Positions 25,080-39,455 of a DNA stretch of 64,000 bases are shown in pieces; position 1 is the stretch's first letter; the number at the start of each line of letters is the position of its first letter. Made by a program: the position numbers and the translations under genes. Source of the DNA: Gammaproteobacteria bacterium (GTDB lineage Bacteria; Pseudomonadota; Gammaproteobacteria; Eutrophobiales; Eutrophobiaceae); the NCBI GenBank assembly GCA_965222155.1, contig CBDCTH010000004.1, positions 192,001 through 256,000 of the forward strand, read 5' to 3'. Under the pieces are notes generated by a model, which was not told the DNA's origin, searched no databases, and saw nothing but the letters and a program-made list of their open reading frames with translations.

Positions 25080-26504
25080 GTGGTCGCAAAAGTAAAAAGA
25101 TTATTAATCAAGGTTAATCAGGTAGCGGTAGGCTATCTGTCCAAAGACGAAACCGGGTACGGTGAAAAGAAATATGTTTTCACCTATCTCCCCGACATCC
25201 GTCCGGACCAGGCTGTCTCATTAACTATGCCTGTTCGCAATGAAAGCTATGTTTTGGGGTTTCTGCATCCTGTGTTTGAAATGAGCCAGCCAGAGGGTTT
25301 GCTTAAAGACCATTTGGTGAACCGATTCAGTAAAATACTTTCTATGGATGACATGGGGCTCTTATTCCTGACCGGTCGTTCCCGGGTCGGGAACGACACG
25401 GCGGAAATAGATCCCAATAACACTGATAAGGAACTCGCTGATCTTGCTCAGATGACATTTCGGCATGAACGACAAGATGGCATAGAAGCAAAGGACGTCG
25501 TCCATGCGAGTGAACAAGACTGGGAACCGTTGTTTGAGCGTATCCTTAAGGATTTTGCTATCAACTCAGGGATTGGCGGTATGCAGCCGAAAGTTCTGGC
25601 CCGGATTGCGGAAAGTTTACCTGAGAATGAAGTTCGGTTTACAGCCAGTATACCCACACATATTGTTAAGGCATCAGACAAGGATCACCCTTATCTGGCA
25701 CTAAATGAATCCTTGTGCCTGACGGTAGCTAACCAAGCCGGACTCGATGTCCCCCATCATCAAATCAGTGATAACGGTCAGGTTATTATCATCGACAGGT
25801 TTGATTTAAAAAAAGATGGCAGCCATTATGCTGTTGAAGATGGTTGCGTACTCCAGGCTCAACCGGCCAGCGAGAAATACGATAGCAGTATGGAGAAACT
25901 TGTCAAAGCGATCCTGACGTACTTGCCGGACAAAAATAAACCAGCCGCGGCAAAGGCGATTTTCACGTTAACCGTGACCAACACACTGGTTCGCAATGGC
26001 GATGCCCATTTAAAAAACTTCGCTATCGTATATGACGAAGCAGCCGACGCCGTTTTCGCTAAAAGCTATGACGTCACTACAACCCGAGCTTACGCATCTC
26101 TGAGAGAAGATGTCCCGGCACTCATGATGCATAACACCAAGCGTTGGCCAACAATAAAAGAACTCGTTCGCTTTGGAAAAGGGTCTTGCTATCTTAAAGA
26201 GCGGGAATGCAATAAAGTCATTAAGAATGTCATTAAGGTACTATGTGATGTCGGCAAATCTATTCCTGGCGTCATTAAGACATGTCCGGGATCAGAACAT
26301 GTCTGTACCGCCATGGTTTCACAGTGGAATGATGGTATTAAGTCACTTTACTTTAAAAAGGATGGTGAAAAAAAAGCTTTTCAAACTGGTCTTGACGAGG
26401 TTGAAGAAGCCCTGCTGTCAGATTACGGTGACCCGTATCTAAATCAGGAAAAACCGGCCCGAGCTGTTCGACCGGAAAACTCATTACGCACACCTGGAAT
26501 TTAA
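25080..26504 (+). CDS. hipA: HipA family kinase toxin
   Basis: AVSLTMP, GIGGMQPK, IDRFD, NGDAHLKNF, YD. Confidence 0.9.
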   Translation: MVAKVKRLLIKVNQVAVGYLSKDETGYGEKKYVFTYLPDIRPDQAVSLTMPVRNESYVLGFLHPVFEMSQPEGLLKDHLVNRFSKILSMDDMGLLFLTGRSRVGNDTAEIDPNNTDKELADLAQMTFRHERQDGIEAKDVVHASEQDWEPLFERILKDFAINSGIGGMQPKVLARIAESLPENEVRFTASIPTHIVKASDKDHPYLALNESLCLTVANQAGLDVPHHQISDNGQVIIIDRFDLKKDGSHYAVEDGCVLQAQPASEKYDSSMEKLVKAILTYLPDKNKPAAAKAIFTLTVTNTLVRNGDAHLKNFAIVYDEAADAVFAKSYDVTTTRAYASLREDVPALMMHNTKRWPTIKELVRFGKGSCYLKERECNKVIKNVIKVLCDVGKSIPGVIKTCPGSEHVCTAMVSQWNDGIKSLYFKKDGEKKAFQTGLDEVEEALLSDYGDPYLNQEKPARAVRPENSLRTPGI

Positions 26505-26570
26505 CAGTGTTTTCCAATCTGAAGGGTGATAGGTTAGATGATCTGCGATCAGTATCTGGAGAGGTTCTAG

Positions 26571-28338
26571 CCCGCATATCTCACAAACCATTGTAAAAGG
26601 GTCTCAACTTCGCGTATAATGTAAGAGTTATCAATATCTTACATTAAACTTGAGAGGAGACCCCATGGCTACACAGTGTACTTCAACCCAACTTGAATTT
26701 CAATCCTTTGGTCGGCGCCATGTCACCGGGCGATTTGACGGTGGCCGGCGCACCTCGGACGCCGGCGGGCTGCTGCTGCGTGAGCTGGAGCAGCGTTTGA
26801 ATGTGCTGCCCCGGCTGGCGGGGTGTTTTACGGATTATCGTCAGGCGGGGAAGGTGGAGCACCCGGTACAGGCGTTGTTGGCGCAACGCATCTATGGGCT
26901 GGCCTTGGGGTATGAAGACCTCAATGACCAGGATGCCTTGCGCAGTGACAGTCTGCTGGCGTTACTGGTGGGCAAGGCGGACCTGACGGGGGATAGCCGT
27001 CGCCGGGCCCGTGACCGGGGGCATCCGTTGGCGGGGTCGAGCACGTTGAACCGGCTGGAGTTGGGGGTGCCTGAGCAGGCGGCGCAGCACCGTTACCGGA
27101 AGATAGTGGCAGACCCTGCGGGGTTGGACCGCGTGATGGTGGAGACTTTTCCGGCCTCGTACCGGCGTGCGCCGTCGGTGTTGTGGCTGGACCTCGATGC
27201 GACGGACGACCCGCTGCACGGTGAGCAGGCGGGGCGTTTCGTTCACGGCTACTACAAGTCCTATTGTTATCTGCCGTTGTACATCTTCTGTGAGGAGCAC
27301 CTGTTGTGCGCCCGGTTGCGCCCGGCCAATGAGGATGCGGCGGCAGGCCGTGTGGACGAGTTGGCCCGGATTATCGGACAGATAAGGCAGCGTTGGCCCG
27401 AGGTGCAGGTCAGGGTACGCGGGGATTCGGGGTTTTGCCGGGAGGAACTGATGGCCTGGTGCGAAGCCAATGATGTGGATTACCTGCTCGGGTTGGCGCG
27501 CAATGGCCGGTTGGAGAAGCAGATTGCCAAGGCCTTGCGCAAGTCGCACCGGCGTTACCTGCAGACGGGCCGGGCCGCGCGGCGCTTCCGGGAATTACGG
27601 TATCGTACCTTGCAGAGTTGGTCGCGCACGCGCCGGGTGCTAGCAAAAGCAGCGCATCTGGCCAACGGCGCCAACCCGCGTTTTGTGGTCACCAACCTGG
27701 ATAACAAAACCGCCGGCGCCCAGGTGTTGTACGAGCAGTTATACTGCATGCGCGGGGAGCTGGAAAATCGCATCAAGGCGCAGCAACCGGGCCTGTTTGC
27801 CGACCGTACCAGCACGGCCACCCTGCGCGCCAACCAGTTGCGCCTGTAGCTGTCTGCCTTTGCCTGCCTGCTGCTGCACGGCCTGCGCCGCCTGGGACTG
27901 GCCGGCACCCGTTGGGCCAAGGCGCAATGCGGCACGCTCCGCACCCGTATCCTCAAACTGGCCGCCGTGGTGCGCATCAGCGCCCGCCGGGTCTGGCTGG
28001 CCTTCGCCTCCGGCTATCCGCACCAGGCCAGGTTCGCCACCGTGCGCCAACAACTGCGAGACGGCCCCGTGCCCGACCCACCCGGTTAACCCGCGGGACC
28101 TCACTCATCCCCTGACCCGCGCGGCGGCCCCGCCGTGAACGGTCTCCCTTGGCCGGCTGACCGCATCACACCCGCCTGGGCAGGGCAAACGCCGGTCTGT
28201 CACCGGAGGGTCGTGATAAACAGGCCGTACGCGTCACCGATTTGCTTGTTTGCCTGCTCTATCGACCCTATGCAGTGAGTGAATCAACGACAGACAGCCT
28301 GTTTGTCGCTGTTTGGTAAAGTTTGTGAGATATGCGGG
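26571..28338 (+). mobile_element. IS1380 family insertion sequence
   Basis: TIRs CCCGCATATCTCACAAAC / GTTTGTGAGATATGCGGG flanked by CTAG on both sides; high GC. Confidence 0.92.
26665..28089 (+). pseudogene. IS1380 DDE transposase with premature TAG
   Basis: FDGG..TSDAGGLLL, LDLDATDDPLHG, RGDSGF, ENRIK; TAG at 27847-27849, then the frame continues (LSAFA...RISARRV) to 28089. Confidence 0.9.
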
Positions 28339-35097: not shown

Positions 35098-35311
35098 TTT
35101 ACCCCACCTCTCCGGCAAAGAAACCGTCCGAATTCTCAAAAAGCTTGGATTTGTCGTTGTTCGTCAGCGGGGCAGCCATATTATCATGCGCTGCGGGTCA
35201 ACAGGTTGTGTAGTCCCTAATCATCGAGAGATAAAAGTTGGAACTTTAGCAGGTATTCTTAAACAGGCAGGTGTTACAAGAGAAGATTTTTTAGCGGCCC
35301 ACTTCAAGTAG
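35072..35311 (+). CDS. hicA: HicA toxin (start codon doubtful)
   Basis: LSGKETVRILKKLGFVVVRQRGSH...VVPNH.EIKVGTLAGILKQAG. Confidence 0.85.
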   Translation: MRLWLIPPDLPHLSGKETVRILKKLGFVVVRQRGSHIIMRCGSTGCVVPNHREIKVGTLAGILKQAGVTREDFLAAHFK

Positions 35312-38121
35312 CGAGCACATCTTCTCATAAAGCATGAACAGGTGCTCGACACGTTCGCGTTCAGAGGCGAACCCTGAACGACGATAGAGCCGGTCCACAG
35401 CGCGGTCGAGAGCTTGGTGCGCCCGGCGCAGGTTGGGTGGCATGAGGTCAGGGTCGTAAAGTTCGGCCAGTGTTGCGTTTGAGTGGACAGCGCGGGTGTC
35501 TAGCACGGCTTGTGCAAGCGGCTCCAACTTCGATAGGTCTGCGCTTCCCTTCCCAAATCCGGGTGGTGTTGGGAAGGTGTTGTAGACGAGACCGATGGAG
35601 TAGCGGTAGTCGCTCTTGAGCCGCCCGCCGATATGGCGCAGCCAGGCCATGTGCATGGCCGAGGTCAACAACGCGAAATCGGACAGGGTGGCGTTTTCCA
35701 GAACGTGGACGAGGTTGCTAGGAATGGTGGGCGGCTCCAGCCACCCAATAGGCGTATACTCGCGCCGCTCCGAACTGACCCCGGGAACGATCAGAAAAGG
35801 CGCGGTGGGAAGAACATTTACATGGTAGAGTGTTGGTGTTGCCGCCAGCTTTTGCGTGGAGGCGCTCTGGCTGGCTTCCCGGTACGAACGGACCGCGGCG
35901 ATACGTTCCCGCACACGCGGCATCCGCACTAGAGCGTCCGGCGGTGCGTCATGCATGGCGAGTATCCAGCGCTCGCCGCCTTGCAGATATTCGCGGGCGC
36001 CGACAAACGGGTGCAGGTATGGCGCGGCATCTGCTTCAGTTTCCAGAAACGCTGTTCGCTCTTTCGGGCTGAAAATGAAATACCCGCCGTCTATGGGTTT
36101 GGAACCGATAATCAGCTTCCCCATCCCGTTGATCGGCCTGCTTTCCTCACGCACCGTCAGGTGTGGGTCTATAAGCCCGCCAGCATCGAACAGGTAAGGC
36201 GAGAGAATGGCATGACTGGTTTCCTCCGGCGCGCCGTTGATGTCAGGATAGCTGAACAGTCGCCTGTTTGCCTTTGCATTTTCCTGTTTGTCCAGACCGA
36301 TAATTACGACGTGGACATGAGCCTTGCCCCGCGCATCCGACCCCCAGGCAAAGGTACGATGCGCAAAGGCAATCTCCAGCTTGCAACGGTCGTACAGGAT
36401 AGGCCAGAGTTGTCCCACTTGCTCACCCTGGGTGAATGAATTGGTTGAAACAAAGCCAATATGGGCTTTACTCGTCTGAACATACTCTCCTGCCTTGATA
36501 AACCAAGCGGTCACGTAGTCAAGCGTGCCGCCGGTTTTTCCCAGTGCCGCGATCTTCCGCACCTGCGCGCGCTGCTCCGGTGAGCACGACGAGAGGGTTT
36601 CCCTGGCGTCGAGGCGATCTTCCGCACCTGCGCGCGCTGCTCCGGTGTCTGGAACTTGGCTCCTACGAAGGGCGGATTGCCGAACACGAAGGAACACTCT
36701 TGCGCCGGCAGCAATTCCTCCCAATCGATCTCCAACGCGTCGCCGTGGACGATATGCGGCGCCGTCTGTAACGGGATGCGTGCGTAAATCTGGCCGAACT
36801 CCAGACTGAGCCGGTTGTTCATGATGTGGTCCATCATCCACAGCGCGGTTTCCGCAATGCGAACCGGAAATTCATTCAACTCAATACCATAGAACTGGTC
36901 GACGTCAATTTGTGACAGGTCTTGTGCCAGGGCGTCCGTTTGTCCGCTCTGGTGGATTTCCTTCAGCACCTCCATTTCCAGTGTACGCAATTCCCGGTAG
37001 GCGATGATGAGGAAGTTGCCGCAGCCGCAGGCCGGATCAAAGAAACACATCTGTCCCAGTTTTTTCTGGAACCGTTGAAGTTCGGAGAGACGGCGACTGT
37101 CTTTGCGTGATTCCAGACGAGCAAACTCGGCCCGCAGGTCGTCCATGAACAGCGGCTCAATCACTTTCAGGATGTTCTTCTCGGTCGTATAGTGCGCGCC
37201 TTGCGCACGGCGTTGTTTCGGCTCCATGATTGACTGGAACAGGGCGCCAAAGATGGCGGGTGAAATGTTTGACCAGTCGAAGTGGCAGGCATCAAGCAGC
37301 GCCCTGCGCATGGCCGCATCAAAGGCGGGAATACGTAACGGCCCGTCGAACAGGTCGCCGTTGATATAGGGAAACCGGATCAGGTCTTCGTCGCGGGTTT
37401 GCTGGCGTTCGTCTTCGGGCGTGTCAAGCACCTGGAACAGTTCTATGAGCCGGGCGCCGGTATCCGAACCATCTTCTCCTGTACGGGTTTCGAGAAAGTC
37501 GAGGAAGATATCGCGCGGCTCGAAGATGCCGGTATCATCGGCGAACAGGCAGAAGACGATTCGTACCAGGAAACGTTCCAGGTCGTGGCCGCGGTAACCG
37601 GACTCGTAGAGTGCATCATGTAACCGCCCAACCAGTTCGGCAGCCCGGATATTCACCGGGTCCTGGTCGCGGAAGGTGCGGCGCTGCACGCCGAGGATGA
37701 AGCCAAATGCTTCCACGTGTTCAGGCAGGTCATTGAGTGGAAAGGCGACAGTCTTTCGCTCATCCAGGTCATGCAGCTCGAAACTCTGAAAGTCGCTGAC
37801 CAGGATGTAACGTGGTCGCTCACTCTCTTTCACGGCGTCGAAGTATTCACCGGCCTGGTCGTAAGCGTCAGCGAGATCGCGACCTGCGCTCTTCTGCTCG
37901 ACGAGCAACACCCCCGGCCAGAACAGGTCGATAAATCCCGAGTGGTTGTCCAGCTTTTTCACGTGCTGTTCGTAGCGCGCGACCGAGCGACGCTTGACCC
38001 CGAATATCTCAAAGAAGTCGTTATAGAAGCTCTGGGTATCACTACGCTCGCGCACCGTGTTCCACCACTCTCGCCCAAAGGCGGCGGCGCGTACACGAAC
38101 TTCATTCCAGGAAAGGCGCAT
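35291..38121 (-). pseudogene. MmeI-like type IIL restriction-methyltransferase, frameshifted by a 65-bp insertion
   Basis: IDLFWPGVLLVEQKS nuclease motif, GAHYT, DPACGCGNF, GNPPF, GGRLKSDYRYS; removing 65 bp gives 921 codons. Confidence 0.93.
36549..36647. repeat. 34-bp perfect direct repeat flanking a 31-bp unique insert
   Basis: GCGATCTTCCGCACCTGCGCGCGCTGCTCCGGTG at 36549-36582 and 36614-36647. Confidence 0.95.
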
Positions 38122-39003: not shown

Positions 39004-39204
39004 ATGAATACTACAAAAGATATTGAGAAAGCCGTTGTATTGTTGTCAAAATCGGAATTAACCAGATTTCGTATCTGGTTCACCGAGTTTGATTCGGAGA
39101 ATTGGGACATGCAAATAGAGACTGACGTAGACTGCGGTCACCTTGAAAAGTTAGGGCAAGCCGCATTGAAAGCACACAGCGACAAAAAGACGATAGAAAT
39201 TTGA
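39004..39204 (+). CDS. Small putative antitoxin
   Basis: IEKAV..LS..EL.RFR.WF.EFD...WD.QIE.D; overlaps the toxin start. Confidence 0.75.
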   Translation: MNTTKDIEKAVVLLSKSELTRFRIWFTEFDSENWDMQIETDVDCGHLEKLGQAALKAHSDKKTIEI

Positions 39205-39455
39205 GACATTACGCGACCCCCGGGTTTTGGGAAATTTTTGATAAATTGCCTGGGCACGTGCAAGATACTGCCCGAAAGAACTATACCTTGTTAAAAGAAA
39301 ATCCGCGACACAACTCTTTACGATTCAAAAAAATAAAGAACTTCCGCTCTGTCAGGGTTGGTTTAAATTACAGAGCACTCGGCATCGAATCAAACTCGGA
39401 TATAGTTTGGTTTTGGATAGGAAGTCATGCCGATTATGATAAGCTCATCAGTTGA
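39201..39455 (+). CDS. ParE/RelE-like toxin
   Basis: NPRHNSLRFKK, SVRVGLNYRALG, VWFWIGSHADYD. Confidence 0.85.
   Translation: MRHYATPGFWEIFDKLPGHVQDTARKNYTLLKENPRHNSLRFKKIKNFRSVRVGLNYRALGIESNSDIVWFWIGSHADYDKLIS

Follow-up and report, generated by a model that had tools for sequence, protein, structure and literature searches.

We describe here an insertion in a 64,000-nt stretch of the genome of a gammaproteobacterium (Eutrophobiaceae), hereafter called the window, in which a gene of the MmeI family of restriction-modification enzymes is interrupted by a 34-nt direct repeat enclosing 31 nt of unrelated DNA. This scar was probably left by the ectopic integration of a spacer by Cas1-Cas2, the integrase of CRISPR systems. 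We favour this reading because the duplication is clean and surrounds unrelated DNA, the empty site is preserved elsewhere, the genome has four cas1-cas2 modules, and three further scars occur in the same genome. Window coordinates refer to the whole stretch, and C12 coordinates to contig C12 of the host genome assembly (G000).

The two 34-mers are identical (100% match) and lie at window positions 36549-36582 and 36614-36647 with a start-to-start spacing of 65 nt, so that 31 nt at 36583-36613 are enclosed by both. The duplication is not extendable: since the preceding bases (c vs. g) as well as the following bases (a vs. t) differ, the sizes are exactly 34 + 31. Neither the 34-mer nor the insert has any further match in the genome, and an exact repeat of 34 nt cannot have arisen by chance in a genome of 4.55 Mb. 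The first-pass annotation of this DNA had reported 34 bp perfectly duplicated around 31 bp, and both the identity and the quoted letters of the insert are confirmed. The features at this locus are as follows.

36549..36582, no strand: copy 1 of the duplicated target site, 34 nt; matches copy 2 with 100% identity; single copy in five homologues and one paralog.
36583..36613, no strand: insert, 31 nt, 65% G+C, putative spacer; unique in the genome; absent from the homologues and from the contigs of sequencing runs X22 and X23.
36614..36647, no strand: target-site duplication copy 2, 34 nt; identical to copy 1.
35291..38121, minus strand: MmeI-family (type IIG/IIL) restriction-modification gene, 921 codons after subtraction of the 65-nt unit; from reading frames, scripted removal and Pfam.
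36511..38121, minus strand: truncated reading frame after the insertion, 536 aa including 31 out-of-frame terminal residues; from translation and Pfam.

On the minus strand, copy 1 encodes ..TPEQRAQVRKIA.. within the methyltransferase domain, and the gene now consists of two frames, namely 38121..36511 (536 aa) and 36841..35291. When 65 nt (one repeat plus the insert) were deleted by script, the two frames merged into one open frame with 921 codons (38121..35291), in agreement with the earlier statement that a net +65 bp frameshifts an otherwise intact gene. In Pfam, the first frame matched MmeI_N, MmeI_hel and the first 164 positions of MmeI_Mtase, and the second frame matched the remainder of MmeI_Mtase, MmeI_TRD and MmeI_C; the five MmeI domains are thus arranged in order across the two frames, with E-values of 1e-26 to 1e-65. 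The translation furthermore contains FGNPPF, with the NPPF motif of methyltransferases, and the break falls ~18 codons downstream of this motif. Judged from these domains, the interrupted gene is a member of the MmeI family (type IIG/IIL restriction-modification enzymes), and its truncated product, which is devoid of the target-recognition domain, should be inactive. An MmeI-like paralog with an intact open frame of 1024 aa is found at C12:534217-537288 and shows 76-81% DNA identity to the broken gene over the compared part. The idea, put forward in the first-pass annotation, that another defence system was knocked out is accordingly to be qualified: the gene itself is broken, but an intact paralog remains. 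As for the surroundings, the gene is flanked by genes for a HipA-like kinase, a DDE_Tnp_1_4 transposase and a ParE-like toxin (window 25080-27849 and 39201-39455), a neighbourhood that looks like a variable stretch of defence genes and mobile elements.

The empty site was found both in relatives and in other samples. In five relatives (G011, G007, G018, G014 and G004), the homologues (78-86% nucleotide identity) carry the 34-mer once and leave a clean gap of 65 nt in the alignment, and the same holds for the paralog. In runs X20 and X21, both from one study, a 91-nt unitig spans 36553-36643, and every word of this unitig includes bases of the insert. Its depth is 87.7 vs. ~137-146 in the flanking unitigs in X20 and 80.4 vs. 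~210-227 in X21, corresponding to ratios of ~0.6 and ~0.37, respectively. With an assembler word of 31 nt and a repeat of 34 nt, the uninterrupted allele has no word of its own; because the word is shorter than the repeat, the depth ratio represents the frequency of the insertion allele, provided that the depth is unbiased. A fixed sequence bias is disfavoured by the unlike ratios in X20 and X21. Another study supplied run X22, in which a single contig of 1136 nt connects 36548 to 36614 with 0 mismatches and nothing covers the insert. Run X23 comes from a third study and has a contig that starts with 11 bases of the left flank, which are followed directly by the repeat and then by the right flank. 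Given the empty site in relatives and other samples together with the partial depth of the insert-specific unitig, the intact allele is, on these comparisons, ancestral and the insertion a young variant that is still segregating; the depths used for this are those of assembled unitigs and contigs.

The same data bear upon an artefact of assembly or sequencing as the origin of the structure. The genome is composed of 12 contigs with an estimated contamination of 7.3%, and the repeat of 34 nt exceeds the assembler word of 31 nt, and these points would speak for an artefact. The insert-specific unitig is nonetheless present in two runs at a depth of 80-88, its internal structure is exact, and its build is common to three other loci; an artefact is hence scarcely credible.

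Spacer integration by Cas1-Cas2 would have proceeded as follows. The integrase of the host would insert a 31-bp prespacer at a non-CRISPR site in the MmeI-like gene, where the two 3'-OH ends of the prespacer would attack opposite strands 34 bp apart. Gap repair would then duplicate these 34 bp to give a repeat-spacer-repeat unit with a net gain of 65 bp, by which the frame would be shifted and a truncated, inactive enzyme produced. Recombination or slippage between the 34-mers would restore the MmeI-like gene exactly.

We then consider the source of the 31-nt insert. No match to the exact 31-mer and no source for its 20-22-mer cores was found in viral, metagenome and genome collections, and BLAST searches of phage and plasmid collections returned chance-level matches only, the best with E = 0.6. 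The insert was not found in the 22 other genomes of the genus with up to 3 mismatches allowed, it has neither a second copy at the 16-mer level nor a short-BLAST match of 15 nt or longer in its own genome, and it matches none of the spacers of the resident arrays. The search of genome and virome that the first-pass annotation had recommended as a way to a protospacer-adjacent motif (PAM) was, accordingly, fruitless. With no source turning up in the genome, in the genus or in the collections searched, template switching from nearby DNA is, on the strength of these comparisons, excluded as the source of the insert.

The MmeI scar has counterparts in the same genome. We scanned the genome for exact direct repeats of at least 25 nt with a period of 2000 nt or less and obtained 1461 repeat pairs, in 105 of which the repeat was present only twice in the genome. 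Fifteen of these 105 had a period below 100 nt: four were near-tandem (insert of 8 nt or less), eight were tandem or protein-coding repeats upon inspection, and three were scars, namely the MmeI scar, C12:2072047 (38+35) and C12:965582. A fourth scar, C12:910036 (37+34), resides in a REP-like (repetitive extragenic palindromic) repeat and was hence dropped by the two-copy filter. The search for similar scars proposed at the outset thus yielded three more of the same build, which are listed below.

C12:2072047-2072157: scar 38+35 with a unique insert, in a gene of ~190 aa belonging to a multicopy PD-(D/E)xK-like family; the gene is frameshifted.
C12:910036-910143: scar 37+34 in an intergenic REP-like element; the repeats are identical, and other members of the family differ at 1 or more of 37 nt.
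C12:965582-965683: scar 30+42 when exact, or 36+36 with 2 mismatches, at the last codons and the stop of a class II aminoacyl-tRNA synthetase gene.

At C12:2072047, removing 73 nt joins two frames into one of 198 aa, and dozens of paralogs are uninterrupted and align through the end of copy 1, resuming at the start of copy 2. At C12:965582, the synthetase gene stays intact, and the closest relative (94% identity) has one copy of the repeat. Neither viral contigs nor the genus yielded a match to the inserts of these two scars. The insert at C12:910036 is identical in 32 of 32 nt to a short-chain dehydrogenase gene at C12:2768862, which is 1.86 Mb distant; beyond these 32 nt, insert and source part at a single-base difference within a stretch of C, and the junctions of the insert show no microhomology. 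The source is flanked by ATA on one strand and by ACC on the other, neither of which matches TTC, the PAM of type I-C systems. From this match, the insert looks like a self-derived "spacer", and a spacer-sized copy of a distant gene placed between 37-nt duplications is hard to explain other than by a spacer integrase. All three of these scars are within 1 nt of the systems with 37-nt repeats, the spacers of which are mostly 35-36 nt. In all, the chromosome carries at least four scars; two of them break genes in defence or mobile islands, and one is segregating.

Several other loci were rejected as scars. C12:148077, 1200121, 1309231 and 927417 are coding tandem repeats, C12:1682435 (1682435-1682620) is an imperfect tandem duplication of 93 nt, apparently at the start of a gene, and C12:1670021 and C12:1709107 are members of a family of ~125-nt tandem units, which is located at C12:1668683-1671912 and C12:1709107. 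Repeat pairs with a period of 0.9-2 kb turned out to be paralog patches. Hairpin elements, GGGGACAnATTT..AAATnTGTCCCC (123 copies), were also rejected as a source of long duplications, because direct repeats of at least 12 nt flank only 6 of the 123. In terms of the gene family broken at C12:2072047, we also note that this nuclease-like family of ~190 aa has 48 DNA matches in the genome including a tandem run (C12:933945-941552 and elsewhere), that it is multicopy in 15 of the 18 genomes of the genus searched, and that the broken gene itself adjoins HigB/HigA-like and AbiEi-like genes.

With the four scars in hand, an accident of repair or replication without any CRISPR component can be weighed, in which template switching or break repair with filler DNA would have produced the 34-bp duplication and the 31-bp insertion. 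Nothing speaks directly for such an accident; it would be consistent with a target site unlike a CRISPR repeat, with a geometry that deviates from every resident array, and with an insert for which no source was found. The insert has no template in the genome, however, either at the 16-mer level or by short BLAST, and the sole scar with a known source (C12:910036) has no microhomology at its junctions and a source 1.86 Mb off. A Ku gene was not found either, and this speaks against capture of filler DNA by end-joining. Furthermore, the sizes of all four non-tandem scars are confined to a narrow range that is CRISPR-like (duplication of 30-38 nt and insert of 31-42 nt), and clean short-period cases outside this range were absent from the scan. 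We accordingly regard a repair accident as unlikely.

Another alternative is a mobile element that would duplicate ~30-38 bp of its target and whose excision would have left the 31 bp as a footprint. Target duplications of insertion sequences and casposons are usually 2-15 bp, and what is inserted is a whole element with defined ends. The MmeI scar would share with these elements a staggered strand transfer followed by gap repair that duplicates the target, but it differs from them in its 34-bp duplication and in a 31-bp insert without terminal repeats. Some elements of the IS4 family do make long and variable target duplications, and a gene for a DDE transposase is present ~9 kb away in the window. 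The four inserts have no common ends, nonetheless, and one of them copies a gene of the housekeeping type, namely that of the short-chain dehydrogenase. Among elements of up to 2 kb, moreover, no multicopy element flanked by a 25-45-nt repeat was found: of the 29 inserts of 0.9-2 kb that lie between exact repeats of 25-45 nt, 28 are single-copy, and the lone insert with three copies sits in a repetitive coding region and is not an insertion sequence. An excised element is thus a quite improbable origin of the scar, more so than a repair accident.

If Cas1-Cas2 integrated the insert, the integrase should be sought among the CRISPR-Cas systems of the host. A genome search with NCBIfam typing gave five matches to Cas1 in four loci, each with cas2. 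The cas1-cas2 genes that the first-pass annotation had presupposed are hence present in four modules, though no resident array has a geometry that matches the 65-nt unit.

Type I-C: cas3, cas5c, cas8c, cas7, cas4, cas1 and cas2; array of 28 repeats of 33 nt, with spacers of 34 nt (17), 35 nt (9) and 37 nt (1).
Type III-A: Csm genes with cas1 and cas2; array of 53 repeats of 37 nt, with 52 spacers of 23-54 nt (mode 35-36).
Type I-G: a Cas4-Cas1 fusion is among the genes; array of 3 repeats of 37 nt, with spacers of 35 and 36 nt.
Type II, C12:3053654-3057730: apparently complete cas1 and cas2 with a truncated cas9; array-less.

In the type II locus, the cas9 frame starts at about position 148 of the family model and thus has no N-terminal part, and a RelE/ParE pair occupies the position expected for the array; no type II array was found within 20 kb of the locus or elsewhere in the assembly. 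When the spacers of the resident arrays were compared with the genome for inference of a PAM, only a single match of 18 nt was obtained. In the I-C array, near-identical spacers of 34 and 35 nt with one mismatch are located one unit apart at C12:2252848 and C12:2252982, which suggests that the same protospacer was acquired twice.

Several observations weigh against spacer integration, and most of them concern the fit between the scar and these systems. The 34+31 scar exactly matches the geometry of no resident array. Its duplication is 1 nt longer than the I-C repeat (33 nt), the repeats of III-A and I-G are 37 nt, and type II has no array. The 31-nt insert is 3-4 nt shorter than the usual I-C spacers, none of the 27 I-C spacers being shorter than 34 nt; none of the 52 III-A spacers is 31 nt long, and those of I-G are 35 and 36 nt. 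For type II arrays, repeats of 36 nt and spacers of ~30 nt are usual, and by these figures the duplication in the scar would be 2 nt short and the insert 1 nt long. The I-C module therefore fits the length of the duplication (33 vs. 34 nt), and the array-less type II module fits that of the insert, given the usual type II spacer of ~30 nt. An assignment of the 65-bp unit to type I-C as 32+33, as offered by the first-pass annotation, cannot be maintained, because the resident I-C array has a 33-nt repeat, spacers of 34, 35 and 37 nt and hence a period of 67-68 nt. As to the site, the best ungapped match of the 34-mer to a resident repeat is 15 of 33 positions (I-C, P = 0.11), all 15 comparisons between site and repeats gave P > 0.1, with P > 0.6 for repeats other than I-C, and the 34-mer has no hairpin potential (z = +1.25), in contrast to the I-C and I-G repeats. 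The duplicated sites of the other scars showed no similarity to resident repeats either. In favour of integration, however, G stands at the beginning and the end of three of the four scars, in keeping with the published preference of off-target attacks for G or C; GGA|GT, which resembles the leader-repeat junctions of I-C and III-A, is present at the left junction only in the scar at C12:2072047.

On the same side of the balance, the protospacer was not found in any collection searched, and there is hence neither a PAM nor proof of a captured fragment. No close relative of the type II Cas1 was found in the genus, where the best identity is 36% in a partial match and 34% over most of the length. 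The polymorphism was drawn from the depths of assembled unitigs rather than from raw reads, and X20 and X21 are possibly the source of the assembly itself. No direct evidence links any enzyme to the insertion, and we infer both Cas1-Cas2 as the agent and the module that supplied it. Taken together, the ectopic spacer acquisition that the first-pass annotation had put forward is retained as the best fit to the evidence, without the matching period, the PAM and the resemblance to a repeat that would have gone with it. In published work, a ruler that is anchored on a motif of the repeat determines where the second attack falls (PMC6895254, PMC6698737), and where this motif is missing a shift of 1-2 nt thus appears plausible; a spacer shorter by 3-4 nt is less so.

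Spacer integration away from its usual site has been described in several settings, which we compare here. Nivala, Shipman and Church 2018 (Nat Microbiol 3:310), as represented in later papers (10.1101/148544, PMC7054753, PMC6698737, PMC9456107), described off-target repeat-spacer-repeat units termed "neo-CRISPR"; these citing papers refer to off-target integration in E. coli over-producing Cas1-Cas2 and to circumstantial natural cases in two other species. The MmeI scar is similar to neo-CRISPR in its spacer-sized insert and in a duplication of about repeat length, located outside arrays in a genome with cas1-cas2. Unlike neo-CRISPR as outlined there, it is natural and polymorphic instead of resulting from over-expression of the integrase, interrupts the coding sequence of a gene from another defence system, and is accompanied by three further scars in the same genome; also, its site does not resemble a native leader-repeat, a resemblance that those studies found, and its geometry is 1-4 nt off every array. 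Full-site integration at off-target positions was obtained in vitro with Cas1-Cas2 of Pyrococcus furiosus (PMC6698737) and with type II-A Cas1-Cas2 of Streptococcus thermophilus (PMC6895254), where paired attacks hit opposite strands at a distance of about one repeat and G or C is favoured at the attacked base. Paired attacks at about the spacing of a repeat, as we propose for the MmeI scar, and the preference for G/C are common to both, whereas the off-target sites reported in those accounts had several positions of the repeat and the MmeI site has similarity at the chance level. Ectopic acquisition of spacers within arrays of S. thermophilus (PMC7999890) is alike in that integration is not at the leader-proximal repeat; its target as described is a true repeat inside an array, unlike the ordinary coding DNA in the MmeI-like gene. 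In the literature searched, the coverage of which leaves out most subscription journals, there was no report of a natural, polymorphic off-target integration disrupting a restriction-modification gene.

A bolder proposal is that ectopic spacer integration is a recurrent and measurable mutational process in this lineage, with the MmeI scar made by the orphan Cas1-Cas2 of type II and serving as a reversible switch; as a whole, we consider this improbable. In that proposal, the orphan type II Cas1-Cas2, after the loss of its array and Cas9, may have been able to integrate only off-target, and the 34-nt repeats would make the knock-out reversible and hence an on/off switch for the restriction system.

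In conclusion, given spacer integration as its probable origin, the MmeI scar is a new natural example of an off-target integration that is already known. Such integration has been shown mainly under over-expression and in vitro, and convincing natural cases are few. The locus in this study offers a natural event in which the ancestral allele is known, the insertion is still polymorphic and another defence gene is inactivated, along with three sister scars in the same genome, one of which has an identified, self-derived source. It also provides a recipe for detecting more scars, namely a search for unrelated inserts of 30-40 nt that are enclosed by exact two-copy repeats, likewise of 30-40 nt. 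The scar would be a concrete case both for the mutational cost of maintaining active adaptation modules and for the origin of the repeat-spacer-repeat seeds of new arrays.

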